Source of the DNA: a virus | Lineage: Duplodnaviria > Caudoviricetes | Length of the DNA: 64,000 nt | Virus record (IMG/VR): IMGVR_UViG_3300025707_000484 | Reading direction: 5' to 3' (one strand) | Shown here: positions 836-53,276 of the stretch, piece after piece | Numbering within the stretch: position 1 is the first letter of the stretch | Layout of the letters: each line of letters starts with the position of its first letter | Translations under genes and position numbers: made by a program | Notes under the pieces: generated by a model | What the model was told of the DNA's origin: nothing | What the model saw: the letters and a program-made list of their open reading frames with translations, nothing else | The model's database searches: none

Positions 836-2017
836 TTAAAGTTTTACACCTTCCTTAAGAAGAACATTTCTAGAAATATATGCTAAAAATTGATGATAAA
901 GTTCTGTTGGATGGCTTAAATCTCTAGCATATGGATATTTAATATTTTCTTCTATACATTCTCTAGTTTGATTCTTAAAAAATTCTGATGCGTAATCCTT
1001 TACATCAATATAATTAATAACATTATCCAACTTATCAAATAACACTGTAGGTATATCTAAATCGTGCGATAATTCACGTTGTTTTGTACTTCCTAAATAT
1101 TTCATAGGTAATTTATTAATTGATGCATTAATTAATGTTTCAAATTCTAATCGAATTCTTTTTTCATGTTCTATCATATCATCTTGGCCAAAGCCTGCTA
1201 TCTTTTTATATGTAGAAAAACTATCATAAACTACAGAAAATGGATGAAATGATTTAAAAAGAATATTGTTATTTTCACAAATCTCGTTCATAATAGCATA
1301 ATTTTTAGTTAAATTATTATAATTTTCACAATTACTAGTTATTTGTTGATAATATGGCATATATTGTTCTCTACTAGGTAATACAGATTGATGGTTGTGT
1401 TGTAATTCACTAAGTATTACATCATCGTTTTTAAACACGTTAGATGATTCCATTTCTGTTAGGAAATATCTATTAACAAGTCTTCTTCCTGGATTTGTAG
1501 GGGACCACAAAACTATATCAGGTTTAATAATATCAATTAATTGATAAAGAGAAATAGCATTTAAATCTGCTGATGCACCAGGTATTGATATATTATACAC
1601 TTTTGCTTTATTAGATATATTGTTACACCAAACATCTTTATCATCAACACCAGTACCAAATGCTATACTACATCCTAATGTTAATATTTTCAAATCAGAA
1701 TCAGTATCAAATGGTTCAGACCTGTAACCATGAGCATTAAATGTGTAATTAATATCTTTATTATGATATTTAGGATTTAATTCTTTATGCTGTTTGTTTT
1801 TGTTATAATGTTCTTCTGAATCAGTGTCATGCCACTTATAGCTATGACTTTTTATACCATCATAAAAATTTTTATATAATTCATTCGCACTATCAGACAA
1901 AGACTCGTTACGGTTACGCTTATCCCAATTAACATACGTACTAAGAATTGGAGGTATGAACGGATTCCAAAAGTTTTTAGTCCATTGAGAAACATTATAT
2001 AATTCATCGAATTTCAT
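836..2017 (-). CDS. SGNH/GDSL hydrolase-like protein
   Basis: Block I LGCSIAFG, block II NISIPGAS, C-terminal DLSHP; ATG at 2017 follows ATAAATA (2024-2030). Confidence 0.7.
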   Translation of the reverse strand: MKFDELYNVSQWTKNFWNPFIPPILSTYVNWDKRNRNESLSDSANELYKNFYDGIKSHSYKWHDTDSEEHYNKNKQHKELNPKYHNKDINYTFNAHGYRSEPFDTDSDLKILTLGCSIAFGTGVDDKDVWCNNISNKAKVYNISIPGASADLNAISLYQLIDIIKPDIVLWSPTNPGRRLVNRYFLTEMESSNVFKNDDVILSELQHNHQSVLPSREQYMPYYQQITSNCENYNNLTKNYAIMNEICENNNILFKSFHPFSVVYDSFSTYKKIAGFGQDDMIEHEKRIRLEFETLINASINKLPMKYLGSTKQRELSHDLDIPTVLFDKLDNVINYIDVKDYASEFFKNQTRECIEENIKYPYARDLSHPTELYHQFLAYISRNVLLKEGVKL

Positions 2018-2029
2018 CAATGATATTTA

Positions 2030-2278
2030 TTATGCTACTGTTAATAGATAGACAACTGCGGAAAATAGAGCAGTAATAATGGAACCACTTAAAATATACA
2101 TAGATTTGTACTTATTTTTTTCGTTAACTAATAGACTATGTCTAATTTCATCGAGTTGTTGCTCAATGACCGTTAATCGACTTTCAATTCGTTCCATATT
2201 CTCCTCCAAGTAACCGTAGCGTTCACTGCAGATTTCTACGTGTGCCTCGAGGCTCTGTTTTTCAATATCTGATGGCAT
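2030..2278 (-). CDS. coiled-coil protein with a single C-terminal TM helix (holin/XhlA-like architecture)
   Basis: 82 aa; heptad region followed by hydrophobic ILSGSIITALFSAVVYLL. Confidence 0.6.
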   Translation of the reverse strand: MPSDIEKQSLEAHVEICSERYGYLEENMERIESRLTVIEQQLDEIRHSLLVNEKNKYKSMYILSGSIITALFSAVVYLLTVA

Positions 2279-2305
2279 AATAATCCTTTAATGTCATACA
2301 AAAAA

Positions 2306-2397
2306 TGCCTTCCGCCCGCCCTATATTATGTGCCTTTACAAATGCCAATCATTTCGCCTAAAATGAGCCTAAGTCTCTGCCTAGTATAATTATTTAT
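2306..2397 (-). promoter_or_regulatory. late promoter (ATAAATA, 2391-2397) followed by an AGGC-repeat 5' leader
   Basis: Plus-strand GCCT ending at 2310, 2335, 2359, 2370 and 2382, plus TGCC at 2343-2346; about 11-12 nt period. Confidence 0.55.
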
Positions 2398-2407
2398 GAA
2401 GGGTGGG

Positions 2408-2965: not shown

Positions 2966-3005
2966 AACTTACCTATAATATGCTATTATAATATTTAGTG
3001 CAGGC

Positions 3006-3033
3006 AAAAAAAAGCGGAGGATAAGTCCTCCGC
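3006..3033 (-). terminator. intrinsic terminator
   Basis: Stem GCGGAGGA/TCCTCCGC with a 4-nt loop, followed by T8 on the minus strand. Confidence 0.85.
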
Positions 3034-3090
3034 TCTTTAAAATTACTAGTCTCTAGAAATTTCTAAAAACTGGGTGATTTTACGCTAATC

Positions 3091-3417: not shown

Positions 3418-3506
3418 TTTTAAATCTCCTATATCTTGTAGTGTGTAAACTAATTTACACCGTTAATATTATTTATCTCAAAAATAGAAAATTATTGGCT
3501 GTTATT

Positions 3507-4253: not shown

Positions 4254-4261
4254 AATACTAT

Positions 4262-9340: not shown

Positions 9341-9369
9341 ATTATATAGGAATTACTACTAGAAGTCAA
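9341..9369 (-). promoter_or_regulatory. sigma70-type promoter for primase (predicted leaderless mRNA)
   Basis: TTGACT-17 nt-TATAAT, then 6 nt to the ATG. Confidence 0.75.
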
Positions 9370-10658
9370 GAATGTATTTCATTATATACTACAGGAAAGA
9401 GTTCTTTATAATTTGTACCGCGCCGCTTATCTAATTCAGTGAGATATATATGAAATTGTTTTTGTAATTTTTTGTCAGGAGTGGACTGCTCTATGCTTTT
9501 GGCAATACCTCTATAATATTCTTTAGTAGATATTATAATATCTTCATCAAAGTCTTGTAATTTATTAATAGCATCAATATAACCCCAGTCAAGAATTTTT
9601 GGTCCAAAAATTGAAGGATGTACATATGGTCGGCCAGCGGCTTGCATTAAACTATTATGTACTATTTGATAATCATCTTTCCCTCTATTAGTAACAATCC
9701 ATTCATTCCACTCATTTGTTTTTTCCATTAGATCTGGTAAAGTAAATGTTGTTAATGGCATCCAACATATATTAATACCTGTTGATATATCTGTATTTTT
9801 AAAAATATACTGAATATTCTTCTCAAATAGTTTGAGATCTAAACCAAACCTAACATATTCTGCCTCAGGTCCCCAACAATCTATACTGCCAGTCACTTTA
9901 CCACCACGAATATTATCATCTTCTATTAGTTTTTGTAACTTATCTAATCGCACTCTCGTTTTATCATGTTCTACACTAAGATTACTAAAAAATGTTATAT
10001 TCAAATCAGGATTACGTTGAGTAGATAATAAATCTAATAATCTATCACTTTGTGGTTGTTTAAATGGCTCTCCACCCAAAACATATAACGTACGAAGGGA
10101 TTTTAAATTTTCCTCCAGCCAAGTAAACATTTTTTCTGTAAGACTTAACTCTGTGTAATCCTCATAAACATCATATGCTACTCCTTCTGTCACAACATCT
10201 ATATGACCAAATTTGGTATTTTCTGATTGCCAAGTACTACTAAAATGCTCACCACAATATATACAAGATAAATTACAATTATTACTAAAATATATCTCTA
10301 ACTCTGTTGGAGAGACATGTACTGCTTGCGGATTATCTAATAATTCTGGAGGTGAACCAGGGGCAAATGGATGAGTTAAATGTAACATTCTATCACTCAT
10401 TCCACCAGCATCTTCTATAACTCTACAATGCTCACACCCTTTTTCAGGCCAAACGTTATCAAGCATTTGTTGTCTAGCAAGTAATTTTTCTGGAGTATTA
10501 TGAAAATCAAAATTATCCGGAATAGCATCATGATTTACTCTATGACAACTGGCCGTCGTTCCTTTAGTAAGAAAAACTGTACTATGTGCCCATTTTAAAC
10601 GACACTGTAAATCTGATTGTATTGGATGCAGTACTGCTGTTTTTTGAGGTTTATGCAT
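9366..10658 (-). CDS. radical SAM protein with N-terminal SPASM/twitch-like Cys cluster
   Basis: CNLSCIYC, LGGEP; N-terminal C..SCH..CEHC. Confidence 0.9.
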   Translation of the reverse strand: MHKPQKTAVLHPIQSDLQCRLKWAHSTVFLTKGTTASCHRVNHDAIPDNFDFHNTPEKLLARQQMLDNVWPEKGCEHCRVIEDAGGMSDRMLHLTHPFAPGSPPELLDNPQAVHVSPTELEIYFSNNCNLSCIYCGEHFSSTWQSENTKFGHIDVVTEGVAYDVYEDYTELSLTEKMFTWLEENLKSLRTLYVLGGEPFKQPQSDRLLDLLSTQRNPDLNITFFSNLSVEHDKTRVRLDKLQKLIEDDNIRGGKVTGSIDCWGPEAEYVRFGLDLKLFEKNIQYIFKNTDISTGINICWMPLTTFTLPDLMEKTNEWNEWIVTNRGKDDYQIVHNSLMQAAGRPYVHPSIFGPKILDWGYIDAINKLQDFDEDIIISTKEYYRGIAKSIEQSTPDKKLQKQFHIYLTELDKRRGTNYKELFPVVYNEIHS

Positions 10659-11839: not shown

Positions 11840-11875
11840 ATTCTCGTACAGTTATAAAAAGCAGTAAATAATAAT

Positions 11876-13651
11876 ATGCGTATAAAATTTATCGTATTTG
11901 GCTCAAACGCCGACACAGGTGATCTAACCACTGAATTAAGGCAAGATGGCTCACTTGAAGGAATAAATGATTATTTTCTAACGCCAATATATTATTTCTT
12001 AAAATCTTTCTATAAAAAAATTGGAAAATACTATAACAAATACATATGGCTACCTACTGAATATGGTGAATTCAAGAATACTAGTGTAAAAAATATAATA
12101 TCCATAATCGAAAAAGAAAAACCAGATATTATTTGTTTCTCTATGTTTTTATGGAATTTTGATGTACAAATAAAAATAGCAAATATAATAAAACAAAAAC
12201 ATCCTAATATAAAACTTATTGCTGGCGGGCCGAGCATTGATCATAAAAATCCAAATACTGCTAATAACTATCCTTTTATAGATTATTTTGTCTATGGTGA
12301 TGGTGAAAAAGCTTTTACTATGTTGTTAGATAGTTTTTATGAGCCAATAGATGAAAGAACAATACCGAATTTAATAACAAAAGAATTTAAAACTAATCAC
12401 GAAATCTTACGATTTAAAGATTATCCAGCATTTAGTCCATATTGTGATTTAAAAGAAGACTTTATTAATGAACATAATCAGATTACAGATTACTTAAACA
12501 AAAATACTACTAATAATTACGTACTTACTTACTCTTTCGAAAGAATACGTGGTTGTCCATATGCTTGTACGTTTTGTGATTGGAGTGGTGGGTTACATCA
12601 CAAATTAAACAAAAGATTGGGAGATTGGAAGGAAGAAATAAAGTTTCTTTCAAAATTTAATAACATATCTATGCATTGGATTGATGCTAATATTGGAATG
12701 ATGAAGGAGGATATTGAAATATTTAAATTTGGTCTATCATACACAACTAATTCTTTTTCCTTTAGCGGCGGGAACATGGCAAAATTACATAAAAGCAATG
12801 TTTTTGATATATGGAGAGCTATATATGAACATGGGCGCGGCAATGTGTTTAAAGTATCATTACAACATCAAGATAAACAAATATTAAAAAACATTAATAG
12901 ACCAGAACTTCCATGGAATGAACATAAAAAATTATTAATTAATTTTAGACAAAAATATAATAAGGCAGAATATAAAGTAGAATTAATTCATGGATTACCT
13001 GGCGCAACTATTGAAGCTCATAAAAAACAATTAATAGAATTCAGTGAAATACCTATAAGTATTGCATCTTTGTATGCATGGGAGTTATTACATAGTAGTC
13101 CTGCATATGACAAATCTTATCAAGAAAAACATAATCTAAAAATAATCACTGCTGGAGTTGTTAACACCAATGTCATAAACTCCACTATTGATGATTTATA
13201 TCATAATGTATCATCTGATAATTATAATCCAATAGAAATATATCAATCAGAGAGAATATGCGATAGTAATTTAGGTTTTAAAGAATATTTGATTATCACG
13301 TATATGACAATATTATATAATATGTTATTTGAAACTACATTAACAACGTCTGAATACAATAAAATTAGATTTATTAACTTTTTAGATTATGCAATGCCAA
13401 TAATTGAAAAATTGGCCGGGGAGCAAACTAAAGACTGGGATGAGAAATTAGAAAAATACGGATTTATTATATTCGGGTTACCGTTTGGATCAAATAAAAC
13501 TCAAACAGTACAACTTGGCTTAGGATTGACAATGATTTGTAATAAATTATTTAGTGGATTACTTTCAGGAAATATTCAAACACCATGGTGGGATGCGTAT
13601 GGTCATATAGAAGATAAAACGAAACAAAGAGGTTCATTGAGTGAGGTTTAA
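11876..13651 (+). CDS. cobalamin(B12)-binding radical SAM protein
   Basis: N-terminal B12-binding-like domain (PDIICFS..WN, IAGGP, GDGE) plus RGCPYACTFCDW. Confidence 0.9.
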   Translation: MRIKFIVFGSNADTGDLTTELRQDGSLEGINDYFLTPIYYFLKSFYKKIGKYYNKYIWLPTEYGEFKNTSVKNIISIIEKEKPDIICFSMFLWNFDVQIKIANIIKQKHPNIKLIAGGPSIDHKNPNTANNYPFIDYFVYGDGEKAFTMLLDSFYEPIDERTIPNLITKEFKTNHEILRFKDYPAFSPYCDLKEDFINEHNQITDYLNKNTTNNYVLTYSFERIRGCPYACTFCDWSGGLHHKLNKRLGDWKEEIKFLSKFNNISMHWIDANIGMMKEDIEIFKFGLSYTTNSFSFSGGNMAKLHKSNVFDIWRAIYEHGRGNVFKVSLQHQDKQILKNINRPELPWNEHKKLLINFRQKYNKAEYKVELIHGLPGATIEAHKKQLIEFSEIPISIASLYAWELLHSSPAYDKSYQEKHNLKIITAGVVNTNVINSTIDDLYHNVSSDNYNPIEIYQSERICDSNLGFKEYLIITYMTILYNMLFETTLTTSEYNKIRFINFLDYAMPIIEKLAGEQTKDWDEKLEKYGFIIFGLPFGSNKTQTVQLGLGLTMICNKLFSGLLSGNIQTPWWDAYGHIEDKTKQRGSLSEV

Positions 13652-15810: not shown

Positions 15811-16243
15811 GTTCTATTGCTAATTGTTTAAGTTCTTTCTTGTCACACATCTCAGCATATGCTTCGACGTCACTTAATTTCCAAGTTGGATATAATTCTC
15901 TTAGAAACTTTGTCTTTTTATTATCTTTTACATTTTTTTTCATTGGCAGATACTTGCGATTAAAACTGCCAATTTTGGGATTAATAGCACACAAAATCAT
16001 CCATACTAACTTTGGATGCTTACTAATTTCCCAGAAATCTTTATTTAATTCTTCATTTGTAGAGCGTATCATATACTCTTGCAAGTCGTTATTACCCGTA
16101 GCACTTGCATTATATTTTAATTGCAAATAAGAACTAAATGCTTTTTGCTTTTCTTTCCCAATCCGACCATAGAACCAATAATCTTTATTATCTAATGCAT
16201 TAAATATCTCTTTAAGAGGTAATATTGGTTGTTTACGTGGCAT
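15773..16243 (-). CDS. clamp loader small subunit (gp62-like)
   Basis: Size, replication context and FSSYL / RKYLPMKK / LRELY pattern resemble gp62. Confidence 0.55.
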   Translation of the reverse strand: MPRKQPILPLKEIFNALDNKDYWFYGRIGKEKQKAFSSYLQLKYNASATGNNDLQEYMIRSTNEELNKDFWEISKHPKLVWMILCAINPKIGSFNRKYLPMKKNVKDNKKTKFLRELYPTWKLSDVEAYAEMCDKKELKQLAIEHGYDDKSIRERL

Positions 16244-16874
16244 TTCTTTCTCTTATATGGGTATGAAAGTTATTTGTAAATACTTCTGATATATACTCTT
16301 CTATTTTAACATGTTTCATATATTTGTCAAGTTCGAAGGGTATACTATCAGCAACCCGAGTAATGATGCCGCCTTTTTCTCTAAACCTATTGCTAATCAT
16401 TTTCAAGTTGTATGCGTCTATAATAAACCCGCCTGCTTCTTTATTGCTTGGCTTATATTGGGGTGAATCCTTATACACATTGTTTGTTAATCCGTCAGTA
16501 GTTTCAAGATCAAATCCAATAATATCAATTTCTTTATGATCCCGCATTGCTATGCATATTGCCATATGTCCGGAATTCATCATTGGTTCATATTCGGGCA
16601 TATCTTCCACAAAATAAACATGCTTTGGCATACCATAAAATGTATTACCTTCTGGTTCATCTACAGCACGACCAGCCTGATGAGAATTATATTCAAATTC
16701 AGTCCGCATTTCTTTATCAATTATAACTAAATGATCTGGATTAAATTCTCTATATAGAGCATTACATCCATATATTTCCCACTCATTGCGTTTGAATAAA
16801 TTTAAACCAATTCTTTTTCGACTCTCACCATTTCCTACTACTAATGCTTTTTTCATTTTACGTTGAAGGCCCAA
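16233..16874 (-). CDS. Maf/CstII (DUF115)-like putative glycosyltransferase
   Basis: VVGNGES, YGCNALY, NSG..A, IIGFDL motifs. Confidence 0.65.
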   Translation of the reverse strand: MGLQRKMKKALVVGNGESRKRIGLNLFKRNEWEIYGCNALYREFNPDHLVIIDKEMRTEFEYNSHQAGRAVDEPEGNTFYGMPKHVYFVEDMPEYEPMMNSGHMAICIAMRDHKEIDIIGFDLETTDGLTNNVYKDSPQYKPSNKEAGGFIIDAYNLKMISNRFREKGGIITRVADSIPFELDKYMKHVKIEEYISEVFTNNFHTHIRERNAT

Positions 16875-16887: not shown

Positions 16888-17724
16888 CTAGTACGGGCTA
16901 TTCATCCGGCCGGCCTCGTCATCCCAATGCCAATACTCACAATTTCCACCATGAATATGACAGTGGCCTGGACCCAACATATTAAAATGAAAGTAATCTA
17001 TCATATCACCAACTCTACCATGAATATGAGCAATATGTGCTTGAGCAGGAGTATTTTCTTGTTTAAACACATCCAGTATAAAATGAGCCAAATTTTTATT
17101 ATTTTCATCATTCATATGATTATTTCTTTTGGTGTCAACTGGATCAGTGTCAACATTACGGGTCCAATCTTTCTCAGATAAAAATTCTGACTTAGAAATA
17201 GCGATTAAAGGAATACGTGCCATTGGTCCACTTTTAGGTATATAATCATTCATACTGTTCTCAAAACACGGTAACCATATACATCGTTGTCTATACTCAA
17301 GCAACATATTATCAATTGATTGTAATAATGCGACCTGTATATCAAGATTATATTCCTCATCATACAGCATTTTATAATATAATGTAATTGCTTTTTTGTA
17401 TTCGAACATTTGACTAATATTATCTTTCTCCCAATTTAAAAAAGTTGTACTCATGTTTTGATCAAAATCAACTTTAACATGTTTATTATATAATCTATGC
17501 GGATTCGTAACACATATCACAATATAATCAACTTTTCCGATTACTGTTTTAATTTGCTTATAAGCACTATACAAGGCTGAAGCAGGTTGGCCAGCACACA
17601 TAATTTCAGCACTTAATTCATATGCTATTATATCTAAATATGACACACTGTCACAATTGTAGTATGGCGTCCGGAAGTCCCGGGAGTCTGCACAAAAACT
17701 ATCTCCGCAAAATGCTATTTTCAT
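16888..17724 (-). CDS. SGNH hydrolase-like protein
   Basis: FCGDSF block I; NH near the C-terminus. Confidence 0.6.
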   Translation of the reverse strand: MKIAFCGDSFCADSRDFRTPYYNCDSVSYLDIIAYELSAEIMCAGQPASALYSAYKQIKTVIGKVDYIVICVTNPHRLYNKHVKVDFDQNMSTTFLNWEKDNISQMFEYKKAITLYYKMLYDEEYNLDIQVALLQSIDNMLLEYRQRCIWLPCFENSMNDYIPKSGPMARIPLIAISKSEFLSEKDWTRNVDTDPVDTKRNNHMNDENNKNLAHFILDVFKQENTPAQAHIAHIHGRVGDMIDYFHFNMLGPGHCHIHGGNCEYWHWDDEAGRMNSPY

Positions 17725-23191: not shown

Positions 23192-24085
23192 TTAGGGTTT
23201 GCTACTGGACTTGGTTTTCTTAGCCTTTTTCTTAGCCTTTTTCTTAGCCTTCTTTTTCGTAGTTTTCTTAAGAGTTTTCCACTTATCATTAACGCCTTTA
23301 ACCTTCTTTAAATTGTCTATGGTAATATCTATTTCTTTTGGATACGCAAAAATATTAATTATCTGGCTAGTTGGATCATCAAATATACATCCCTTACTCT
23401 CAAAAAAGTTATCAGGATTAAAATTATTTGAAGGAACCCAATATGCTTCATAACCAATATCTTTAACAAACTGGAATAATTCTTTTGTATTTTCCTGTGC
23501 CTCGCACATAATAAAAGGACGATGTTGGGAAAACAATTTCTCACCTGTTTGTAGTATATCTGCTTCATTACCACTTACATTAACTTTTACTAAACCACAA
23601 TGCTCTAATCCAATATCATCCAATTTAAACACAGCACATTGTTCTAAAGTATCACCACTATCCTTAATAGTAGTTTTTAAATTACCATGATCTATTTCAT
23701 CATTAATATTATTAATAGGAATATATAAAGGACGTTGAGTACCTATCGCCGCTTTAAAATGTTGTGCGTTGAATGCGTTGTTGAGGGTTAAATTGGTGAC
23801 TAAAAAATAATAATTTAAATCACTAGGTTCAAAACTTAAAATTTTACCTTCATCTCCAACTAATTTACTGTAAAAAACAGAATGAATACCGATATTAGCT
23901 CCTACATCAACTACATTAGTGCCTGGACGTATAATTTGTGATGCTAATGCCAATTCTGCTTCTGCGTATTCGCCATAATTATCTAAACTACGACCAATTA
24001 CAACATCATTTAAATTATAAGCAAAATCACCATGCTTACATTGTTTTACTCGTACACTACCTTGTGATACAATTGGAAATCCCAT
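23192..24085 (-). CDS. FkbM-family methyltransferase with Lys-rich C-terminal tail
   Basis: VVDVGANIG, SFEP; tail KKTTKKKAKKKAKKKAKK. Confidence 0.88.
   Translation of the reverse strand: MGFPIVSQGSVRVKQCKHGDFAYNLNDVVIGRSLDNYGEYAEAELALASQIIRPGTNVVDVGANIGIHSVFYSKLVGDEGKILSFEPSDLNYYFLVTNLTLNNAFNAQHFKAAIGTQRPLYIPINNINDEIDHGNLKTTIKDSGDTLEQCAVFKLDDIGLEHCGLVKVNVSGNEADILQTGEKLFSQHRPFIMCEAQENTKELFQFVKDIGYEAYWVPSNNFNPDNFFESKGCIFDDPTSQIINIFAYPKEIDITIDNLKKVKGVNDKWKTLKKTTKKKAKKKAKKKAKKTKSSSKP
23215..23250. repeat. 12-bp tandem repeat x3 encoding KKAK units
   Basis: TTTTCTTAGCCT x3. Confidence 0.85.
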
Positions 24086-24093
24086 AATATTAC

Positions 24094-32806: not shown

Positions 32807-32833
32807 ACCACTATTTAACAGAGATCGGGGTTA

Positions 32834-34276: not shown

Positions 34277-35551
34277 TTATTTAGTTGTTTTTAAAAAATT
34301 TAGTTCTGGAAATATATCACTAAACTGTGCTTTTCTTACTTTGTCATGTAAATTAATATCCCAACTTACTTGCTCTAAACTTCTGGTGACGCGCAGGGAA
34401 GTGCTTTCGGTACTGTCGTTTGGAAGCTTAAAGCGGATAGTCTTTGAATTGTCATTATAATCAATCATTGAAGTAATTAAACTGGATATTGTATTAGCAA
34501 GTGGTTGGTTTCGTACTACTAGAACCTCATCTTTCATAAATTTTTCTAATTTCTCTTTAGTTTGTAATTTAAATTCATAAGGTAAAAACTTAAAATCAGC
34601 ATTTGTACCAAACCCAGGTTCAGCAGGCAATATTATATTAAAATGCTTGTCAATCCATCCTTTATCTTGCCAATATAAAAACATCTCAGGCAATCTATGA
34701 AAATTAAATATTGACATAACTGGAGAATAGTGTACATTAATATTAGGATATTGCTTTACATAATCATTAGTTTCTACAATATTGTCCCATTTTTCACCAT
34801 AACGTATCCATTCTGCACGTTCTTCTATTTCATCGATACTTGCTGATAGTTCTACTTCTTTAAATTGAGAAATCAAATCCCAAAAGTTTTTAACAATTCC
34901 ATTATGTTTATATGTCTTATTAGACATATTACTATTCAATAATAATTTAATATTGCTTGCTATACCTATATCTATCATCATTTCAAGCATAGTATAACTT
35001 TCATCCATTATACTGGGCTCGCCACCTGCCAAATATATTTGCTCTAAACTAGAACTATGCTCTAATAAACTACTTAATAACTGTTTTGTGTCACTAATTG
35101 GTGGTAGTGGTTTATAATTTTTAAACTGCTTCTTATTAAAGGCCTCCCATTTACTACTAAAAACAGGCCCACAATAAAAACACATAAGATTACATTTATT
35201 TGAAAATCTTATATCAGTATAAACTAAATTTAAATCTGTTTTTCCATCTATCGTATTATCTAATAAGTTAAAATGATGTTTAAAATTTCTATTTGCCCAA
35301 TTACGAGTACTATGTTCATTTCCTTTTTCCTCTACCTTCCAACATTCCGAGCACATATCAAGTTTTTTATCTTCAAGCATAGAAGTTCTAATATACTGCA
35401 TCCGTTCGCCATTCCATATTTCTTCCAAAGTAGAATCATTCACATTACCAGCCGATTTATAATTAGTTGTCATGCAACACGGATATACATTCCCCGTAGG
35501 CATTACTGCTATAGACACCCACGGCAATATACAAATATTATTTCTTGTCAT
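34277..35551 (-). CDS. radical SAM protein with N-terminal SPASM/twitch domain
   Basis: CILPW..VYPCC..CSEC; CNLMCFYC; AGGEP. Confidence 0.92.
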   Translation of the reverse strand: MTRNNICILPWVSIAVMPTGNVYPCCMTTNYKSAGNVNDSTLEEIWNGERMQYIRTSMLEDKKLDMCSECWKVEEKGNEHSTRNWANRNFKHHFNLLDNTIDGKTDLNLVYTDIRFSNKCNLMCFYCGPVFSSKWEAFNKKQFKNYKPLPPISDTKQLLSSLLEHSSSLEQIYLAGGEPSIMDESYTMLEMMIDIGIASNIKLLLNSNMSNKTYKHNGIVKNFWDLISQFKEVELSASIDEIEERAEWIRYGEKWDNIVETNDYVKQYPNINVHYSPVMSIFNFHRLPEMFLYWQDKGWIDKHFNIILPAEPGFGTNADFKFLPYEFKLQTKEKLEKFMKDEVLVVRNQPLANTISSLITSMIDYNDNSKTIRFKLPNDSTESTSLRVTRSLEQVSWDINLHDKVRKAQFSDIFPELNFLKTTK

Positions 35552-36030: not shown

Positions 36031-37119
36031 CTATTTACAGGATCCGCATATTATACGGCACGTTAATCGATAATCATTATTATTAAACTCTTCTTTAATA
36101 TCTAATGTATCTATATCATATTTTTCTTTGTGCGATAAATCATTGTTCCAGTGACAACATGGCAAGATTTTTCCAGTAACAGATAAAAATAAACTATAAT
36201 TTCCAGTATCATCTCTATCTATATCTACATGCATACAATCTTTTTCTTTAACATAATTATTAAGTGTGAAACTTCCATCAACAGCATCATTCAAAACTTG
36301 CCTATCAGTATATGTATAAGATTGTTGCAACCCACCGCCACCCAGACCGTCTGTACCTAGCCCACTTTGAGGCCAGCCGTTCGCACCACCGCCTTGCCCA
36401 CCAGTACCACCATATCCATCGTTTGAACCACCGCCCCCGCCGCCGCCGCGGCCGCGTTTTCCAGACAATAGTTCACCAGTTTTCCAATGCCTTGCATTTG
36501 GTGTAATAAACGGCCGCATAACGAAAAACTGTTTAAATCCCATATCTTGTGATAACTGTCTTGCTTCATCAACTTGATGTTCATTATGTTTAAATTTTAA
36601 ATACTGCCACTCCGCTACACCACCAGCATTTATAAATGCTCTAGCATTATCTATTATTTTATTAAAATTAGTTCCTTGACGATGTATACTATGCGTATCT
36701 TCTAAACCATCTATACCAAAAACAACTTGATGCGAATTATAAAAATTATTATATAAATTTTCCCCTAATTCTTCCCACCACTTTACTGATCGCAAACTAC
36801 CATTTGTATGTATGTCTATATATTTCTGCTGTCTTGAAGAATGTAATTGAATTTTATTATATTGTTCAACTTTTTTTAGTAATGGTATAAAATGTTTATA
36901 AGCAATTGGATCGCCAAGATTCCCACATAAATGTAAAACTTTTAAATTTGGGAGTTTAATCATTTCCTGCATAACAGTTTTAACTGGTATATCCATTAAA
37001 TCTAGACCAGGACGAAGTCCAAATCCATTATTATTACGTAGACAACCTGGACAAGATGCATTACATCTACTAGTAAGTTCAACATGTAATAAAGTTACTT
37101 TGTTTGCATCAATGTACAT
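36031..37119 (-). CDS. radical SAM/SPASM protein with a Gly-rich insertion
   Basis: CNASCPGC, GNLGDP, HTNGS, C-terminal PCC..C..C; start set at MYIDANK. Confidence 0.88.
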   Translation of the reverse strand: MYIDANKVTLLHVELTSRCNASCPGCLRNNNGFGLRPGLDLMDIPVKTVMQEMIKLPNLKVLHLCGNLGDPIAYKHFIPLLKKVEQYNKIQLHSSRQQKYIDIHTNGSLRSVKWWEELGENLYNNFYNSHQVVFGIDGLEDTHSIHRQGTNFNKIIDNARAFINAGGVAEWQYLKFKHNEHQVDEARQLSQDMGFKQFFVMRPFITPNARHWKTGELLSGKRGRGGGGGGGSNDGYGGTGGQGGGANGWPQSGLGTDGLGGGGLQQSYTYTDRQVLNDAVDGSFTLNNYVKEKDCMHVDIDRDDTGNYSLFLSVTGKILPCCHWNNDLSHKEKYDIDTLDIKEEFNNNDYRLTCRIICGSCK

Positions 37120-37903
37120 TTTTATACTCATAATATATTTTATTTGTAATTTCAACACAATATTCTTTTAATTTTTCTATATCAAAATTTATTGGTGTAA
37201 AATGCATATCTAAAATTGGTGCAATATGTTTAATATAAAACTCTATATGAAAAGATGGCATTGGAGACATGAATCTTGGATCTTCAAATATGCGATACTG
37301 ATAATGATCACTTTCTTTATATAAATCATATATTGGCGTATGTATTACAAACTTATCCCATTTAATATTATTCCGTAAATGTGATAATTCTTCTGTATTG
37401 TCTATAAATTCAAAATCAAAAGGATATCCATAAAAGAAATAATAAGGAATATTATGTAACTCACACAAATTTTGTACATCAAGTATTTGTTCTAAGTCTT
37501 TTAAATGATCATATATTTTAGATTGTATATATAACTCTTTGATTATATTGTCTTGACTATGACTACTTGCCCAAAACCCTTTATCGTCTACAACATTTGC
37601 TTTCATGTCTACAATAAAATTTCTTAAATTAAATGTTTTTATTTGCTTTAAGACTTCAGTATCCTCAACAAACATATCTAATTTACCAATACTAGTCCAT
37701 TGTATTATTACTACTAACTCTTTATCCAAGTTTTCTAGTATATGTTTTTTACACACTCGTCCTATAAACTCATTACCTACCGCAGGTCCTCCCATAGACA
37801 AATGTTTTAATTTATGTGTAAGAATAGGGAAATGTACCCAAATTGGATAATGTTTAAATTCTCGTTGACTTATTCCGCAACCACTAGTTAGCAAATATTG
37901 CAT
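37109..37903 (-). CDS. degenerate SGNH-like protein
   Basis: LTSGCGIS, GGPAVGNEFI, IIQWT; catalytic Ser and His appear to be substituted. Confidence 0.55.
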   Translation of the reverse strand: MQYLLTSGCGISQREFKHYPIWVHFPILTHKLKHLSMGGPAVGNEFIGRVCKKHILENLDKELVVIIQWTSIGKLDMFVEDTEVLKQIKTFNLRNFIVDMKANVVDDKGFWASSHSQDNIIKELYIQSKIYDHLKDLEQILDVQNLCELHNIPYYFFYGYPFDFEFIDNTEELSHLRNNIKWDKFVIHTPIYDLYKESDHYQYRIFEDPRFMSPMPSFHIEFYIKHIAPILDMHFTPINFDIEKLKEYCVEITNKIYYEYKNVH

Positions 37904-38777
37904 TATATTGTTTCCGTGTTATAACACTTCCTTGTCCATAATGATCATATTCTATTTCATCTGGATTATTGCTACAAGCCTTACATACTATAGAGTTTGG
38001 TTTTTTAATGTTGTTAACAAACTCATCTAAATTATCATCATAACTTAAACCTGTATTAAGGTATGGTTGCCATGTTTCAGAATCTCGTATATTAAACAAT
38101 GCTAATGTATCATCTAAATTAGCAACAGCAGGACACTTGTACAATTTATTTTTATACAATGTAGGCGAATTTGGTGCTCCACAAACTTTATAAGCACCAA
38201 CAAAATCTTCATTATTAGCAGGCATTAATCTAGGACCTTCCCCCATAAACGGGCGCCTAAATTCACCAAACATATTCATATGCCATTTTATGTCAGCATT
38301 TCTATCTTTTAATTTAATAAGTTTATCAGGTGGATCAAACGGGGTTGCCGTCACTTCCCAATCAGAATGCTTTAAGAAAAATTTAACATTGTTAATATAT
38401 TCTTCAGGGGGCGGATAAAAGTGTAAACTAGTCTGTATTAAAACATTTCCTAATTCTTTACACCAACTATATAAATCTGGACGCACAAGGTAATGAAATC
38501 CATTTGTAATAAATTTAACTCGTGCTGTAGGGAAATACTCTCTAACACCAAATAGCCAACTTTTTAAATCTTTATTAAGCAGTGGCTCTCCACCCATTAA
38601 ATTAACCTCTCGTATTGTAAATCGCTTGCTCCATTCTTTAAACCACTGCTCACCATCACTCCAAGGAACATGACCTTTACGATTATAATTGGACATTACT
38701 ATACAACCTCTACAAGATAAACTGCAAGCATATTGCACCATTACATCTAAATATTTTAAATCATATTTGTTTGTCAT
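37884..38777 (-). CDS. radical SAM protein
   Basis: CSLSCRGC, MGGEPLL, ITNG; C-terminal LYKCP..CKAC. Confidence 0.9.
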   Translation of the reverse strand: MTNKYDLKYLDVMVQYACSLSCRGCIVMSNYNRKGHVPWSDGEQWFKEWSKRFTIREVNLMGGEPLLNKDLKSWLFGVREYFPTARVKFITNGFHYLVRPDLYSWCKELGNVLIQTSLHFYPPPEEYINNVKFFLKHSDWEVTATPFDPPDKLIKLKDRNADIKWHMNMFGEFRRPFMGEGPRLMPANNEDFVGAYKVCGAPNSPTLYKNKLYKCPAVANLDDTLALFNIRDSETWQPYLNTGLSYDDNLDEFVNNIKKPNSIVCKACSNNPDEIEYDHYGQGSVITRKQYNAIFAN

Positions 38778-39507
38778 TTTCTATTTTTTTATTAAACTCT
38801 TGATGTATTTCATCTCGTATAATTATATCACAATAATCACTTATTTGCCTTAATATTCTACTCTGCGAGAATAAGTGCTGTTGACGAGTATCTAAGTCAT
38901 CATAACTTATATTTAAATTTCTATCAACAACAGAATGATAGCTATACTCTGCCTTATCCCACTCTTTTTCTAATTTTTTTCTATTTTTATCTGTTAGTTC
39001 TTGTTTGCGTGAGGCAAGTATAATATCTATAGTATTCATATTATAATGTGTATTAATATACCATGATTTATCATTATTTGTAGTTAATTGTAACAACATG
39101 CCAAAGAATTCTAATTGTGTAGGCTGTGGTTGATTCCAAACTTTACGCTTAATATTACGTAATACTTGATTATGCCCTTCTTTAGAAGCAGGATATGTTA
39201 TATTAATAAACTTATAATTCTTAAAATACTTCCATATGTCATCTTCTCTATAATGTGTAGGAACTACAACATATTTGTCCTTATCTAATGTAGTAGTATC
39301 TTTATAATCATATAGTCTTTCTGGTTTAAAGTCCATACGTAATAAGTTTTGATTAAATATATCATCAACCTTATGCCTATCACCTATTTTACGCCTATCT
39401 AAAGTATTACACTCATCAGATTTACTTATAATATAGGACAGAAATTCTCCACCTGCTCCGTGCGGATAACATACAAATATAAACTTGAATTCAGGTAAGA
39501 CGAACAC
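38761..39507 (-). CDS. hypothetical protein, weakly sulfotransferase/P-loop-like
   Basis: FVCYPHGAGGEFL, VPTH, ISYDDL. Confidence 0.5.
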   Translation of the reverse strand: MFVLPEFKFIFVCYPHGAGGEFLSYIISKSDECNTLDRRKIGDRHKVDDIFNQNLLRMDFKPERLYDYKDTTTLDKDKYVVVPTHYREDDIWKYFKNYKFINITYPASKEGHNQVLRNIKRKVWNQPQPTQLEFFGMLLQLTTNNDKSWYINTHYNMNTIDIILASRKQELTDKNRKKLEKEWDKAEYSYHSVVDRNLNISYDDLDTRQQHLFSQSRILRQISDYCDIIIRDEIHQEFNKKIENDKQI

Positions 39508-39518
39508 ACTAATACTTA

Positions 39519-46527: not shown

Positions 46528-46556
46528 ATTATAACATAATTAACCACAGATTGCAA
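46528..46556 (-). promoter_or_regulatory. sigma70 promoter for dNMP kinase (predicted leaderless mRNA)
   Basis: TTGCAA-17 nt-(TGT)TATAAT, then 6 nt to the ATG. Confidence 0.7.
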
Positions 46557-47391
46557 GTAAATCTGTTTTATTTTTATAAATTCTATCTGGGGGTATTAGA
46601 TATCCCAATGTTTGTAATTTATATGCTATATTAGTATAAATCCATGGGTCTTCTTCTACAGTAATATTTTCAGTCCATTGTTCTACAATATTAGTAGTCA
46701 TATATGGCCGTGATTTAAACAAATTTTCTATAGTATAAAAGGATTCGTCATTTATATTTTTAGTTTCTATAATTGTATCTGTTTCAAAAGTTGCTTCTAT
46801 TTGATCACGAAAAAACATATAACCACCCTCGCCAATAGCATAACTACGCAAATCATGAAAATAATCACCAAAACCATTATTACTTTCATGATGCCTATGA
46901 AAATATTCAGCATTTTGTTGTAAATCATCACACATTACTTGAGAAATATGCACACAATGTCCTAGTTGTTCTCTATTGAGATGTAAAGTACCACCAAGAC
47001 CATCTAGTATTTGATTACGTATTGCATGTAGTTGTATAATAGAACTACCATGAGTTAATACAATCTTCCATTTATTATTATGAGGATATCTATCATTATC
47101 TTGCAATCTGCGACGCAGATCTTTTATAATTTCATCAACATATTTGTGATATAATACATTACTAAAATACACATTTTTATCAACAGGCAATGATTCATGT
47201 GTCCAATATATGTCTGAAAAATAATGTTCTAAAAAATCGTGCCCCCAATCTCCACGTTTATGTCCATCTTCATTACAATATTTTACTTCAAATTGTTCTG
47301 GAAATTTTGAAATTAAGTTATATGCTAATTGATTTCCTTTATGCCCGCTGGCATACGCAATCACATAGAACTTCAATGGAGACTGAGTCAT
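46540..47391 (-). CDS. hypothetical protein, N-terminus resembles that of 38761-39507
   Basis: VIAYASGHKGNQL, VLTH; TTAAATA box 5 nt upstream. Confidence 0.6.
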   Translation of the reverse strand: MTQSPLKFYVIAYASGHKGNQLAYNLISKFPEQFEVKYCNEDGHKRGDWGHDFLEHYFSDIYWTHESLPVDKNVYFSNVLYHKYVDEIIKDLRRRLQDNDRYPHNNKWKIVLTHGSSIIQLHAIRNQILDGLGGTLHLNREQLGHCVHISQVMCDDLQQNAEYFHRHHESNNGFGDYFHDLRSYAIGEGGYMFFRDQIEATFETDTIIETKNINDESFYTIENLFKSRPYMTTNIVEQWTENITVEEDPWIYTNIAYKLQTLGYLIPPDRIYKNKTDLLAICG

Positions 47392-47416
47392 AGTAATATT
47401 TAATTAAAGAAATTTA

Positions 47417-49371: not shown

Positions 49372-49394
49372 AGTATTGCCTCATATATATAGTG

Positions 49395-50640: not shown

Positions 50641-52082
50641 TGGATTTTTATTATGACGGCCAAATGCGTCGGTATCTTGCTCAATTTATTAGACTACTGA
50701 GTCATTTTTATGTAGAGACTGGCAAAGATTCTGCTGGCAACTCTGCTCTAATACAAGTTCCTGTAAAATATGGAGACATTTCTCGCCAGGTAGCATCTAT
50801 TATTCACAAAAATAGTGAAAATGCTCTCAACACCGTACCACAAATCTCTTGTTATATAACAAATGTAACATTTGACAGAGACAGGATACAATCACCGAGC
50901 CATTTAGACAAAGTACATGTTAAGGAACGTTTTTATGATAAAGATACGGCATCATATACAGCAGGACCTGGTGATAGTTATACTATTGAACGCAGTATGC
51001 CGAGTCCATATAGACTAACTGTTAATGCTGATATATGGACTAGTAATACTGAACAAAAAATGCAAATTATAGAACAATTATTCTATATGTTTAATCCAAG
51101 TTTAGAAATACAAACTACAGACAATTATGTTGACTGGACAAGTTTATCATATGTTGAATTAACTGAAATTGCATTTAGTAACAGAACTGTTCCAGTTGGT
51201 ATAGAAGATATGATAGACGTTGCCACAATGACGTTTGAGATACCAATTTGGATTAATCCTCCAGCAATTATCAAACGTCTCGGTGTTATTTCCAAAGTTG
51301 TTATGGGTATATTTGATGGTGCTGGTGATTTAGCAAGTAGCGTATTAGATGATACAAAACTTATGGGAAGTAGACAATACTATACTCCATTAAACTATGG
51401 TGTATTATTGCTGAATGGAGAATTAAAAGCATTGTCAATTAGTGAACCAATTAGTGGTGACACAAAAGTAGATTCAACTTTTGACCATCTACCTGTAAAA
51501 TATGGTGATGATATTCCCTGGCGGAAAATCATAGCACAATATGGAGAACTAAAAGACGGAATTAGTCAAGTAAAATTATTAACTAAATTTCAAAATGAAG
51601 ATATTGGTACAGATTTCACAGAAGTTGTTGGCACAGTATCTATAAATCAAGTTGATGAAACCATACTTAACTTTACAGTAGACTCTGACACAATTCCAGC
51701 AAATACACAAACCGCCATTAATGCTGTTATTAACCCATTGAAAAACACTCCGGGAGATGGTTTACCCGCGGCCGTTAATGGACAACGTTATTTAATATTA
51801 GAAGATCTTGGTTCAACAATTAACACAACTGGCGGGCCAGCAGGATGGCCTGATGCTACTGCTGATGACATACAAGCGAGTAAATTTGATATTATACAAT
51901 ATGATGGTACGAATTGGTCAGTATCATATGATGCTAGTGCTAACAAAGGCATCCATTATGTAACCAATACAAAAACTGGTATTCAATATAAATGGACTGG
52001 TTCTGATACTGGGGCAGAATGGATTAAATCCTATGAAGGCGAATATTTAACTGGCTTGTGGTCTATTTCCCTACTTCCATAA
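50640..52082 (+). CDS. gp15: tail sheath stabiliser/terminator (gp15-like)
   Basis: FYYDGQMRRY, VPVKYG, QIIEQL..FNP. Confidence 0.8.
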   Translation: MDFYYDGQMRRYLAQFIRLLSHFYVETGKDSAGNSALIQVPVKYGDISRQVASIIHKNSENALNTVPQISCYITNVTFDRDRIQSPSHLDKVHVKERFYDKDTASYTAGPGDSYTIERSMPSPYRLTVNADIWTSNTEQKMQIIEQLFYMFNPSLEIQTTDNYVDWTSLSYVELTEIAFSNRTVPVGIEDMIDVATMTFEIPIWINPPAIIKRLGVISKVVMGIFDGAGDLASSVLDDTKLMGSRQYYTPLNYGVLLLNGELKALSISEPISGDTKVDSTFDHLPVKYGDDIPWRKIIAQYGELKDGISQVKLLTKFQNEDIGTDFTEVVGTVSINQVDETILNFTVDSDTIPANTQTAINAVINPLKNTPGDGLPAAVNGQRYLILEDLGSTINTTGGPAGWPDATADDIQASKFDIIQYDGTNWSVSYDASANKGIHYVTNTKTGIQYKWTGSDTGAEWIKSYEGEYLTGLWSISLLP

Positions 52083-52104
52083 TAAATTTTATATAATTAT
52101 TAAT

Positions 52105-52527
52105 ATGAAGCAAGTTACCGGAGCAGGTGGTATTTTCTACTGCCGCGACACAAAACGTTTTCTATTTTTATTAAGGAATGATAAAAAATATAAAAACAGA
52201 TGGGGTTTCGCAGGCGGCAAAGTAGAAAATGGTGAAACAACTATTAATGGTTTAAAAAGGGAAATTTTCGAGGAAGTAGGACACTTGCCCGATATAGAGA
52301 AAACAATTCCTATTGAACTGTTTACTTCAGAAGATGGGCACTTCTTTTATCACACGTTTATACTAATAATAGATAAGGAATTTATACCCATTTTAAATGG
52401 AGAACATTGTGGGTTTGCTTGGGTTACTATGGCAGGGTGGCCAGGGCCATTACATCCTGGTGTTTTTTCAACCCTTAAACTAGATTCAATCAAAGATAAG
52501 ATTAAAACTATAGTAGAAACAATTTAA
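52105..52527 (+). CDS. NUDIX hydrolase
   Basis: Nudix box GGKVENGET...LKREIFEEVG. Confidence 0.92.
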   Translation: MKQVTGAGGIFYCRDTKRFLFLLRNDKKYKNRWGFAGGKVENGETTINGLKREIFEEVGHLPDIEKTIPIELFTSEDGHFFYHTFILIIDKEFIPILNGEHCGFAWVTMAGWPGPLHPGVFSTLKLDSIKDKIKTIVETI

Positions 52528-53276
52528 ATATCTGCTTCTATTACAAAATCCCATACTTTTAATTGGCGGAAATTACGACACCATTTCCATGCTTCAGGCA
52601 TTTCTTCTTCCATGCCTTCTGCAGTTATTCTTACAAAATCAACATCATTATATGTGTCAAATATTCTTTTCATGTTATTAATCCAAACTTCATCACCTGG
52701 ATTTTCATCTGCTTGACCATAAAATTCTGAACCAGCATATACATTATTGTTTGTTTTTTGATCAACAGGTTGATTATCAAATCCATATAAGTAAATTTTC
52801 TTATGTCCGTGAAAGCAAGCAATATATGTTGCTGTGGCGCCAGCATTCATTCGTGGATCATGTGGTATAAGAGATACATGTTCAGGATGGTCTAATACAC
52901 TTTTTGCTCTGCCAAATACAATATTATCTTCAGCATAGCCACTTTCAACTATTTCAGTTGTTAATTCAGGATGAGTTACTACAAGAAAATCTGGCTTCCA
53001 ATCTTGGTAAATTCTATTACAACCATAACATTGTCCTTTATATTTTCCAAAATGGCCGCCTCCTGCTGTTGAAAGAAAACTTAACTTCATCGCAACTCCA
53101 GAATATTCTATTCGAGATTTGCCATTGCCAACTACATATGCTACTTTTGTATGATCACTATTGGACACCGAACGAGGGATCCAAAATCTATCTTGGTGTT
53201 TACGTCCATTTTTAACTACAATACCGGATACTACATATTCACCATCATAATCAGTAACATATTTGTTTACCATCAT
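52524..53276 (-). CDS. Maf/CstII (DUF115)-like putative glycosyltransferase, paralog of 16233-16874
   Basis: VVGNGKSR, YGCNRIY, NAGATA, LYGFD, NNVY; ATAAATA plus SD AGGAG. Confidence 0.7.
   Translation of the reverse strand: MMVNKYVTDYDGEYVVSGIVVKNGRKHQDRFWIPRSVSNSDHTKVAYVVGNGKSRIEYSGVAMKLSFLSTAGGGHFGKYKGQCYGCNRIYQDWKPDFLVVTHPELTTEIVESGYAEDNIVFGRAKSVLDHPEHVSLIPHDPRMNAGATATYIACFHGHKKIYLYGFDNQPVDQKTNNNVYAGSEFYGQADENPGDEVWINNMKRIFDTYNDVDFVRITAEGMEEEMPEAWKWCRNFRQLKVWDFVIEADI

Follow-up and report, generated by a model that had tools for sequence, protein, structure and literature searches.

Radical S-adenosylmethionine (SAM) genes have been reported in number from marine phages. A T4-like genome described by Nishimura et al. 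2017 carries 12 of them together with Fe-S helper genes (PMC5332604), and in pelagimyophages Zaragoza-Solas et al. 2020 found cassettes of radical SAM genes within the host-recognition cluster (PMC7029224). Neither report gives a fold-level annotation, describes the gene triad treated below or assigns a function. Virus-encoded transferases that decorate the virus's own particle are known from mycobacteriophages, in which capsid and tail proteins are O-glycosylated (Freeman et al. 2023, as cited in PMC12801897), and from giant viruses, in which the fibrils are glycosylated. The present analysis concerns a stretch of 64,000 nucleotides (the window; G000:C1:29719-93718) from the IMG/VR phage record IMGVR_UViG_3300025707_000484 (322,647 bp; CheckV completeness 90%; GC 0.357) and, within it, 14 candidate open reading frames (ORFs), 836 through 52524, which a preliminary description had read as a late-expressed system for modifying virion or surface glycans. 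They comprise five radical SAM genes, three SGNH-like genes, two GT42-like transferase genes, two methyltransferase genes and two sulfotransferase-like genes. Coordinates are window positions unless marked as genome positions.

Like the pelagimyophages and the genome of Nishimura et al., the source phage is a marine, T4-related myovirus with many radical SAM genes, with cassettes that vary between close relatives and with Fe-S helper genes (here HesB-like and, as read by eye, DUF59/PaaD-like). In contrast to those genomes, this one, of a 323-kb jumbo phage, has such genes scattered over its packaging, neck and replication modules, with a further seven-gene array outside the window. Virion decoration by virus-encoded transferases, as in mycobacteriophages and giant viruses, is here a candidate function; unlike the present phage, those systems work with classical GT-A/GT-B glycosyltransferases, and radical SAM enzymes play no part in them. 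The affiliation of the phage was judged from PHROG matches in the genome (tail sheath, fibres, large terminase, DnaB-like and other helicases, the gp15 tail-sheath stabiliser, head-tail adaptor and virion structural proteins), from the large terminase subunit (TerL) of the window, which is 53% identical to that of the Pseudomonas jumbo phage PA5oct, and from a megablast of 24 kb against cultured phages, which gave no match. Because of these results, the source is classed on sequence grounds as an uncultured marine jumbo myovirus distantly related to T4.

The family assignments of the preliminary description largely hold, but the 14 ORFs are units of differing conservation and not one co-inherited or operon-like system. 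The proposal of a virion or surface glycan modification system is for this reason supported in part: the placement of the GT42-like genes in virion modules and the sugar enzymes found beside homologous genes speak for it, whereas the idea of a single system did not hold. Late, virion-directed glycan tailoring by separate units is the best reading, and a tentative one, its probability being put at a little below even. The window would then hold one part of a repertoire, common to the clade, of enzymes that tailor small molecules or glycans.

GT42-like transferases and the fibre module

The strongest part of the virion-glycan reading is the link between GT42-like genes and the fibre; the chemistry of the triad and of the radical SAM enzymes is its least defined part. 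Two GT42-like (CstII-like) nucleotide-sugar transferase candidates are encoded on the minus strand of the window. The first copy lies at 16233..16874; its paralogue at 52524..53276 stands just downstream of the fibre gene and has its own ATAAATA box (53290-53295) and a Shine-Dalgarno sequence. A third copy is found at genome 301327-301974. A profile of the two window proteins and their homologues found no PDB matches other than GT42 sialyltransferases (E 3.1e-5, and 8.6e-5 when the alignment was deepened), and the nucleotide-sugar motifs GNGxS, CN, SG and GxD could be aligned between this family and GT42 enzymes of the CstII/CstI type. The pair had been described as Maf/CstII-like; the PDB matches are to GT42 only, and the Maf model PF01973 was not matched. 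Neither protein matched Pfam (PF01973, PF06002) or NCBIfam at E 0.01, and their sole PHROG match is phrog_30607, of unknown function. The family is large, with more than 845 clusters.

With Campylobacter CstII and CstI (CAZy GT42) the phage proteins thus share the GT42-only profile match and the four motifs. They differ from CstII and Maf in their size of about 190-250 aa, in the lack of a PF01973 or PF06002 match, and in the catalytic His of CstII, which is not clearly kept: the His188 column is not invariant in the family, and 52524 has Asn there (WINN). The remaining differences, which concern donor synthesis and pterin-related neighbours, are weighed further below.

The candidate acceptor is the 1696-aa Ser/Thr-rich fibre protein encoded at 53366..58456 on the minus strand, which has PHROG tail-fibre matches. 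Its Ser plus Thr fraction is 0.229, against 0.132 for the proteome; together with the neighbouring large structural proteins the range is 23-26%, against 13%. Genes for Maf flagellin nonulosonate transferases adjoin flagellin genes, an arrangement to which a GT42-like gene beside a Ser/Thr-rich filament protein may be likened. A NUDIX hydrolase gene (52105..52527, plus strand; PF00293, 50.5 bits) is convergent with 52524 and is a conserved neighbour of GT42-like genes. When neighbours were counted within 5 kb of GT42-like genes at 80 viral loci, a virion-module gene was present at 53. The commonest neighbours of any kind were gp15 (34 loci), NUDIX (31), virion structural protein (28) and fibre (27), and portal, prohead protease and major head protein genes were found at 9-15 loci. 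A Lys-rich protein of 392 aa encoded at 48193-49371 (phrog_11903, function unknown) is a conserved neighbour both of GT42-like genes (23 of the 80 loci) and of neck genes.

The three GT42-like copies would form a first unit, a fixture of the neck/fibre and head modules. Late in infection, these enzymes most likely would move a host-supplied CMP-activated or other nucleotide-activated sugar to fibre or neck proteins that are rich in Ser and Thr. The candidate enzymes of the window as a whole might instead act late on lipopolysaccharide (LPS), capsule or S-layer glycans of the host, against superinfection or the trapping of progeny on debris. Modification of O-antigens is common among the SGNH, FkbM and carbamoyltransferase families, and CstII-type enzymes sialylate lipooligosaccharide, as their PDB names state. 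In pelagimyophages, genes for glycosyltransferases and LPS have been interpreted in this way (PMC7029224). Such host-surface remodelling is nevertheless quite improbable, as the link of the GT42-like gene is with virion modules, not with lysis or membrane genes, and no obvious signal peptide or membrane segment was seen in any candidate when the sequences were judged by eye.

The sulfotransferase-fold, radical SAM and SGNH-fold triad

A sulfotransferase-fold protein, a radical SAM enzyme and an SGNH-fold protein are encoded together in the window by 38761, 37884 and 37109, and related triads were found at 44 viral loci. The three genes stay together at about 30% identity, in two different orders, the permuted one in distant phages. 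The triad is syntenic in all relatives of the clade, in which the radical SAM gene 36031 follows it, and the block lies invariably between gp4 and the terminase genes.

The first triad gene, 38761 (38761..39507, minus strand), is preceded by TAAGTA-N5-GTG, with the box at 39513-39518. A search of the PDB with its profile returned one marginal sulfotransferase row (E 0.22), and 37109 likewise gave no meaningful match; both proteins were resolved by structure prediction alone. The AlphaFold2 (AF2) model of 38761, based on 54 homologues, reached a pLDDT of 93.6 and matched sulfotransferases with a Foldseek probability of 0.94. In VIA-align it was superposed on TPST1 and on the sulfotransferase (ST) domain of olefin synthase (Z 10.4, 176 aligned residues), and about 45 of the 50 top rows were sulfotransferases. 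With the enzymes that depend on 3'-phosphoadenosine 5'-phosphosulfate (PAPS), such as TPST, SULT and polyketide ST domains, it shares the fold over the whole domain and a YE/DDL-like C-terminal motif. Invariant residues are G17, E21 and H85; the invariant His of a PTH motif occupies what we take to be the position of the catalytic His in SULTs. No Pfam model is reached. The family comprises 111 clusters among 1.8 billion representatives, and the contexts of its distant homologues are viral and uninformative.

The centre of the triad is the radical SAM gene 37884 (37884..38777, minus strand). In its product, four Cys residues of the C-terminal part and the motif YKNKLYKC are invariant. Its profile matched 7wzv best in the PDB (E 3.7e-16), followed by GDGT-MAS and MoaA. 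The third member, 37109 (37109..37903, minus strand), has an SGNH fold without the Ser and His catalytic residues, and its Cys9 is invariant. The AF2 model (pLDDT 84) was aligned with TesA by VIA-align (Z 12.5, root-mean-square deviation 3.3, 161 aligned residues), all top rows being SGNH proteins; the likeness to SGNH/GDSL enzymes such as TesA and PatB extends over the whole domain, and again no Pfam model is reached. A profile search extended to PF19547 DUF6071 proteins, a remote relation. Literature searches on DUF6071, 7WZV and 7X0B found nothing. The structure check proposed for these proteins thus yielded the expected folds, although 37109 lacks the catalytic Ser and His and 38761 the PAPS-loop Lys.

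The second unit proposed here is this triad, in which the four Cys residues of the radical SAM enzyme would form an auxiliary site and which would work as one on a small substrate, presumably a sugar or sugar nucleotide, that may be activated or esterified and then radically rearranged. Another possibility is that the triad modifies phage DNA or tRNA together with some of the other radical SAM enzymes; its sulfotransferase-fold member would then be a P-loop-like 'kinase' that works with the radical SAM enzyme and the hydrolase-fold protein. Pathways of thymidine hypermodification (PMC8989533, PMC5889632) do employ kinases of the P-loop type alongside radical SAM enzymes, a DNA-modifying role has been proposed for a phage radical SAM module (bioRxiv 10.1101/2024.08.14.607894), and folds of RNA kinase and tRNA isopentenyltransferase (tRNA-IPT) occur among the lower structural matches of 38761. 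Distant T4-like contigs, in which the triad lies near DNA ligase and splits gp47 from gp46, point the same way. The matches of 38761 are, however, mostly to sulfotransferases and not to kinases, no Walker lysine is conserved, and no gene for a base-exchange or hydroxymethylase partner turned up in the vicinity of the triad. Within the clade, the box-headed genes and their placement in a structural module fit late virion functions, and nucleic-acid hypermodification is the least probable of the explanations weighed here.

Radical SAM enzymes

The claim of five radical SAM proteins in the window was confirmed, as all five ORFs carry the CxxxCxxC cluster motif. The Pfam model PF04055 (gathering cut-off 29.5 bits) was matched above its cut-off by 34277 (33.6 bits) and 37884 (41.0 bits), both of which have the SAM-binding motif GGEP/GGEPL. 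The scores of 9366 (23.2 bits), 11876 (23.6 bits) and 36031 (25.9 bits) lie below it, and these ORFs are backed by NF033640, by a B12 domain or by motifs. The NCBIfam model NF033640 (N_Twi_rSAM; cut-off 170 bits) is matched over its full length by 9366 (213 bits) and 34277 (308 bits) and is not reached by 36031 (28 bits) or 37884 (31 bits).

In 34277 (34277..35551, minus strand), which lies within the packaging operon, a SPASM domain occupies residues 7-71 and the radical SAM core follows, so that the twitch/SPASM part is N-terminal to the core. The other N_Twi enzyme of the window, 9366 (9366..10658, minus strand; CNLSCIYC), has the same N-terminal twitch/SPASM type. Both belong to a paralogue family with 12 copies in the genome, which has 19 PF04055 matches in total. 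Seven twitch-family genes, six N_Twi paralogues and one more PF04055 match, form a block at genome 143589-154770, outside the window; the GC content of this block is 0.37-0.41, against 0.26-0.32 for the dispersed AT-rich copies. By this block lies a small ORF (genome 145016-145351) that was read by eye as a DUF59/PaaD-like Fe-S protein. Relatives that are 42-67% complete have 8-14 radical SAM matches and 2-4 GT42-like genes each.

A profile of the N_Twi family matched best the twitch domain of BtrN (2-deoxy-scyllo-inosamine dehydrogenase, an aminoglycoside sugar enzyme; E 3.5e-7) and then viperin, a nucleotide dehydratase. The twitch domain is N-terminal in the phage proteins and C-terminal in BtrN. 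By these profile matches, the nearest solved relatives are enzymes that act on sugars and nucleotides, not peptide maturases.

The plus-strand gene 11876 (11876..13651) encodes a B12-binding radical SAM enzyme with CPYACTFC at about residue 227 and is preceded by TAAATA-N5-ATG, the box at 11865-11870. Its B12-binding domain, with a score of 44.3 bits, exceeds the PF02310 cut-off of 32.1. The combination of a B12 domain with a radical SAM core recalls the KedN5-type class B sugar C-methyltransferases, and the best NCBIfam match is indeed the KedN5 family NF033712, but its 118 bits lie far below the cut-off of 700. From its domains and scores, 11876 is thus classed as a class B-type enzyme and not as a KedN5 family member. 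No close relative of it was found in the IMG/VR pattern scan, which detects close relatives only.

The fourth gene of the conserved cassette, 36031 (36031..37158, minus strand; CNASCPGC), encodes a radical SAM enzyme that has a Gly-rich insert and, towards its C-terminus, Cys residues. Its synteny is kept in every relative of the clade, with identities of 40-71%. The insert, a low-complexity stretch of G runs with N, Y and Q at residues ~222-275, lies between the core and the C-terminal Cys region, and the orthologues vary in length from 317 to 371 aa.

Radical SAM enzymes and methyltransferases of this kind could also modify virion proteins directly, in the manner of ribosomally synthesised and post-translationally modified peptides (RiPPs), by epimerising, cross-linking or methylating residues of fibre or head proteins and not sugars. 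B12 radical SAM enzymes together with methyltransferases recall proteusin toolkits. Through its SPASM domain, 34277 has secondary NCBIfam matches to maturases of sactipeptides and ranthipeptides, and the profile of 37884 also matches the peptide enzymes YydG, CteB and SkfB. The cassette forms part of the packaging and head operon, and PhyH dioxygenases are frequent beside N_Twi homologues in the prokaryote collection. RiPP-like modification is improbable all the same, as the best solved matches of N_Twi, BtrN and viperin, are small-molecule enzymes, no precursor-like peptide gene or leader-binding RiPP recognition element (RRE) domain was seen, and the neighbours in other genomes are sugar enzymes.

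Sugar-enzyme neighbourhoods

Homologous radical SAM arrays adjoin two Glyco_transf_7 genes and a methyltransferase gene, DegT and NAD-epimerase genes, or a UDP-glucose dehydrogenase gene and a B12 radical SAM gene. In the cultured Synechococcus phage S-SCSM2R, a homologue of 37884 stands among five annotated glycosyltransferases. N_Twi homologues were collected from 20 loci of a prokaryote genome collection, mostly of Bdellovibrionota and Bacteroidota, at least one of which (L117) is a binned phage contig. Most often, the neighbours at these loci are further radical SAM enzymes and PhyH dioxygenases, followed by ABC/ABC-2 transporters, GT1/GT4, carbamoyltransferase, epimerase/dehydratase and GDSL proteins. 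Four contigs of metagenome-assembled genomes (MAGs) of Bdellovibrionota, which are predatory bacteria, hold arrays of four to nine N_Twi genes (L136, L071, L073, L075); a TerL-like gene was sought in two of those genomes and none was found.

The phage genome itself encodes a carbamoyltransferase, a Gfo/Idh/MocA oxidoreductase, DegT and phosphomannomutase. These are grouped outside the window at genome 158781-175909, where three GDSF-motif SGNH-like ORFs and a paralogue of 16888 lie together with the NodU/CmcH-type carbamoyltransferase, the Gfo/Idh/MocA oxidoreductase, the DegT aminotransferase, the eukaryote-type phosphomannomutase and an unannotated 1204-aa protein.

Two contigs of 148 and 183 kb (L102 and L117) from the Haliscomenobacter sp. 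MAG EUL_031 are syntenic with the radical SAM block of the phage at 37-61% identity. They were considered as a bacterial gene cluster, and this was rejected, as they carry a phage-like TerL. Since that TerL is 60-65% identical to the TerL of the window, the contigs are regarded as relatives of the jumbo phage that were binned into a Bacteroidota MAG. Their presence in such a MAG is a weak hint at the host.

SGNH-like, methyltransferase and sulfotransferase-like genes outside the triad

Of the three proteins called SGNH-like, 37109 has the fold, 836 has motifs and protein-atlas leads, and 16888 is assigned at motif level only. The first of the window, 836 (836..2020, minus strand; GC 0.272), has a GCS block I and a DxxHP (DLSHP) block V, and its true start is probably the ATG at 2017. 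Both motifs are kept in three homologues, and the protein-atlas leads are Lipase_GDSL/SGNH and DUF6071. An hhalign comparison with the profile of 37109 and DUF6071 gave a probability of 34%, at the N-terminus. One relative was found in the scan for close relatives.

The GDS-motif protein 16888 (16888..17724, minus strand), a possible SGNH relative, is encoded directly upstream of 16233. It shares an N-terminal FCGDSFCAD with its paralogue at genome 163082-163933; the GDS is present but is accompanied by an atypical DTxRxNH. The paralogue adjoins the three GDSF-motif ORFs, two of which have weak PF13472 matches below the cut-off, and the carbamoyltransferase gene. These two weak sites are the only PF13472 matches in the genome, and none lies in the window. 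A PDB profile search with 16888 was blank, and hhalign comparisons with the DUF6071 profile and with the GDSF paralogues of the genome were unconvincing.

The two methyltransferase assignments of the preliminary description held at the level of Pfam. The FkbM methyltransferase gene 23192 (23192..24085, minus strand) scores 43.7 bits with PF05050 (cut-off 22.7; profile positions 1-172 of 173) and follows TAAGTA-N5-ATG, with the box at 24091-24096. It was found in the closest relatives only, at 70-86% identity, by a scan that detects no others. The last 30 residues form a strongly basic, Lys-rich tail, KKKAKKKAKKKAKK, which lies beyond the 165-269 residues matched in relatives. The adjacent 24094 (24094..24858, minus strand) encodes a class I SAM-dependent methyltransferase (PF08241, 38.6 bits against a cut-off of 21.2).

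As to a second sulfotransferase-like protein, 46540 (46540..47391, minus strand; TAAATA-N5-ATG, box at 47397-47402) is a lead only. The nearest named atlas clusters are DUF2972 (0.93) and sulfotransferase (0.92), and hhalign to the profile of 38761 gave a probability of 8%, at the N-terminus only. Pfam, NCBIfam and PHROGs returned nothing for 836, 37109 and 46540, and for 16888 and 38761 only chance-level rows below the cut-offs.

The N_Twi paralogues, the B12 radical SAM enzyme, the FkbM and class I methyltransferases and the SGNH-like proteins could make up a third unit that diversifies sugar chemistry, by oxidation, epimerisation, C- or O-methylation and acyl transfer. Its members are gained and lost between relatives.

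Base composition, late-type boxes and insertion

The candidate genes are AT-rich, as had been described: their mean GC is 0.310, against 0.360 for the other ORFs of the window (Mann-Whitney p 2e-5), and all 14 lie below the 40th GC percentile of the genome. Late-type boxes were also found where they had been placed, upstream of 836, 11876, 23192, 46540 and 52524. Across the genome, NTAAATA 8-mers are 25-32-fold enriched in upstream intergenic DNA. At 26 of 396 ORFs TAAATA begins exactly 11 nt upstream of the start codon, where 0.25 would be expected per offset, and at three more TAAGTA does so. Boxes with the N5 spacing precede 11876, 23192, 38761 and 46540; the box of 836 is N6 from the likely ATG, and that of 52524 is 19 nt away, with a Shine-Dalgarno sequence. 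Boxes also precede TerL, the structural gene 29817, 41455, 49426 and 59974, whereas promoters of the TTGACA/TATAAT type are found on replication and nucleotide genes, with TATAAT-type sites at 8363, 25563, 45865, 48193 and 52105.

The enriched box resembles the A-rich box of gp55-dependent T4-type late promoters (TATAAATA). Because of the dichotomy between the two promoter types and the likeness to the T4 late promoter, we infer that the candidates are expressed late.

TAAATA-N5-ATG arrangements without a Shine-Dalgarno sequence occur in the window at, for example, 11865-11870, 24091-24096, 32812-32817, 39513-39518 and 47397-47402. The geometry of T4 late promoters would put +1 at the A of the ATG. 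The spacing suggests a class of leaderless late mRNAs, beside a second class in which the box lies 24-36 nt upstream and a Shine-Dalgarno sequence is present.

Comparison with relatives also bore out the insertion of candidate genes between core genes. Both 46540 and 34277 are missing in one sub-clade, where the flanking genes are adjacent, which indicates true insertion or deletion between conserved genes, and in another sub-clade there are additional radical SAM genes at three sites. The presence of 46540 varies among relatives; it is absent between the deoxynucleoside monophosphate kinase and adaptor genes in L021 and L024. In the same two contigs 34277, which is present in some relatives, is missing between the homologues of 35538 and 33649.

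Separate units or a single system

Co-occurrence and copy number across relatives divide the candidates. The triad and 36031 are fixed, other members such as 34277 and 46540 come and go, and the N_Twi and GT42-like families stand at 12 and three copies in this genome. One explanation of this pattern is a heterogeneous set of accessory genes in AT-rich flexible slots, without a common substrate, in which only the GT42-like genes are virion-related and the radical SAM enzymes have assorted metabolic or cofactor roles. The distribution of single genes fits it, with no close relative found for 11876, one for 836 and FkbM in the nearest relatives only, as does the rarity of radical SAM genes beside GT42-like genes; the 12 radical SAM genes of the marine T4-like genome were taken as part of Fe-S metabolism (PMC5332604). 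Other observations speak against it. Distant phages (L041, L042) cluster N_Twi, GT42-like and triad genes within about 10 kb, sugar enzymes repeatedly accompany radical SAM arrays in settings independent of one another, and the expansion to 12 paralogues argues for one diversifying chemistry. A set without a common substrate is, on balance, unlikely.

Several points weigh against late, virion-directed glycan tailoring. A radical SAM neighbour of a GT42-like gene was found at only 4 of the 80 loci; GT42-like genes were for this reason rejected as general partners of radical SAM enzymes, and the GT42-like unit may be unrelated to the triad and N_Twi units. No classical-family glycosyltransferase was found in the window, and NeuB and CMP-sugar synthetase (CTP_transf_3), searched for in the phage genome, are absent, so that the donor sugar must be made by the host or be a different one. 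In the triad, the YxxGAGGE loop of 38761 has no conserved Lys of the PAPS loop (5'-phosphosulfate-binding, 5'-PSB), in contrast to PAPS sulfotransferases. In 37109 and its triad orthologues, GCGIS replaces the GDS motif (GCG for GDS), the Ser of block I and the His of block V are absent, and the Cys is invariant. The genes gp47 and gp46, between which the triad lies in distant T4-like contigs, belong to DNA metabolism. SPASM and twitch enzymes often act on peptides. The timing of the candidates, finally, is read from a promoter motif.

Pterin chemistry has also to be considered for the GT42-like genes. The DUF115 family, to which they are related, also contains a pterin pyrophosphokinase, and a 6-pyruvoyl-tetrahydropterin synthase (PTPS) gene is a neighbour at 9 of the 80 loci, a count that weighs on the same side. 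In HTVC008M-like marine contigs (L061-L064), a 192-aa GT42-like gene stands directly upstream of PTPS, with URO-D and a gene for Fe-S biosynthesis close by. The reading of the family as an MptE-like pterin pyrophosphokinase was demoted, as there is no PF01973 match and the PDB matches are to GT42 only; a pterin-related role for part of the family, to which the PTPS neighbours point, is a minor possibility.

In a bolder form of the glycan-tailoring reading, T4-related and jumbo phages of aquatic habitats would share a pathway of radical-based glycan editing that is specific to viruses, with the triad as its core, expanding N_Twi families for diversification, sugar modifications unknown in cellular glycobiology and compact GT42-like enzymes, encoded within the neck and head modules, to place the sugars on the fibres. 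This form is doubtful.

Significance for marine phages

If glycan tailoring of this kind is real, abundant marine phages would chemically edit their own fibres, which may affect host recognition, the stability of the particle and its escape from recognition by hosts or grazers. Phages of this clade would also represent an untapped reservoir of radical SAM sugar chemistry, given the 19 matches in one phage and the 8-14 in incomplete relatives. Testable hypotheses are now available for three uncharacterised families: the compact GT42-like, the sulfotransferase-fold and the Cys-SGNH/DUF6071 proteins. Phage genomes rich in radical SAM genes, so far taken as evidence of Fe-S metabolism, may be better read as equipped for glycan tailoring.

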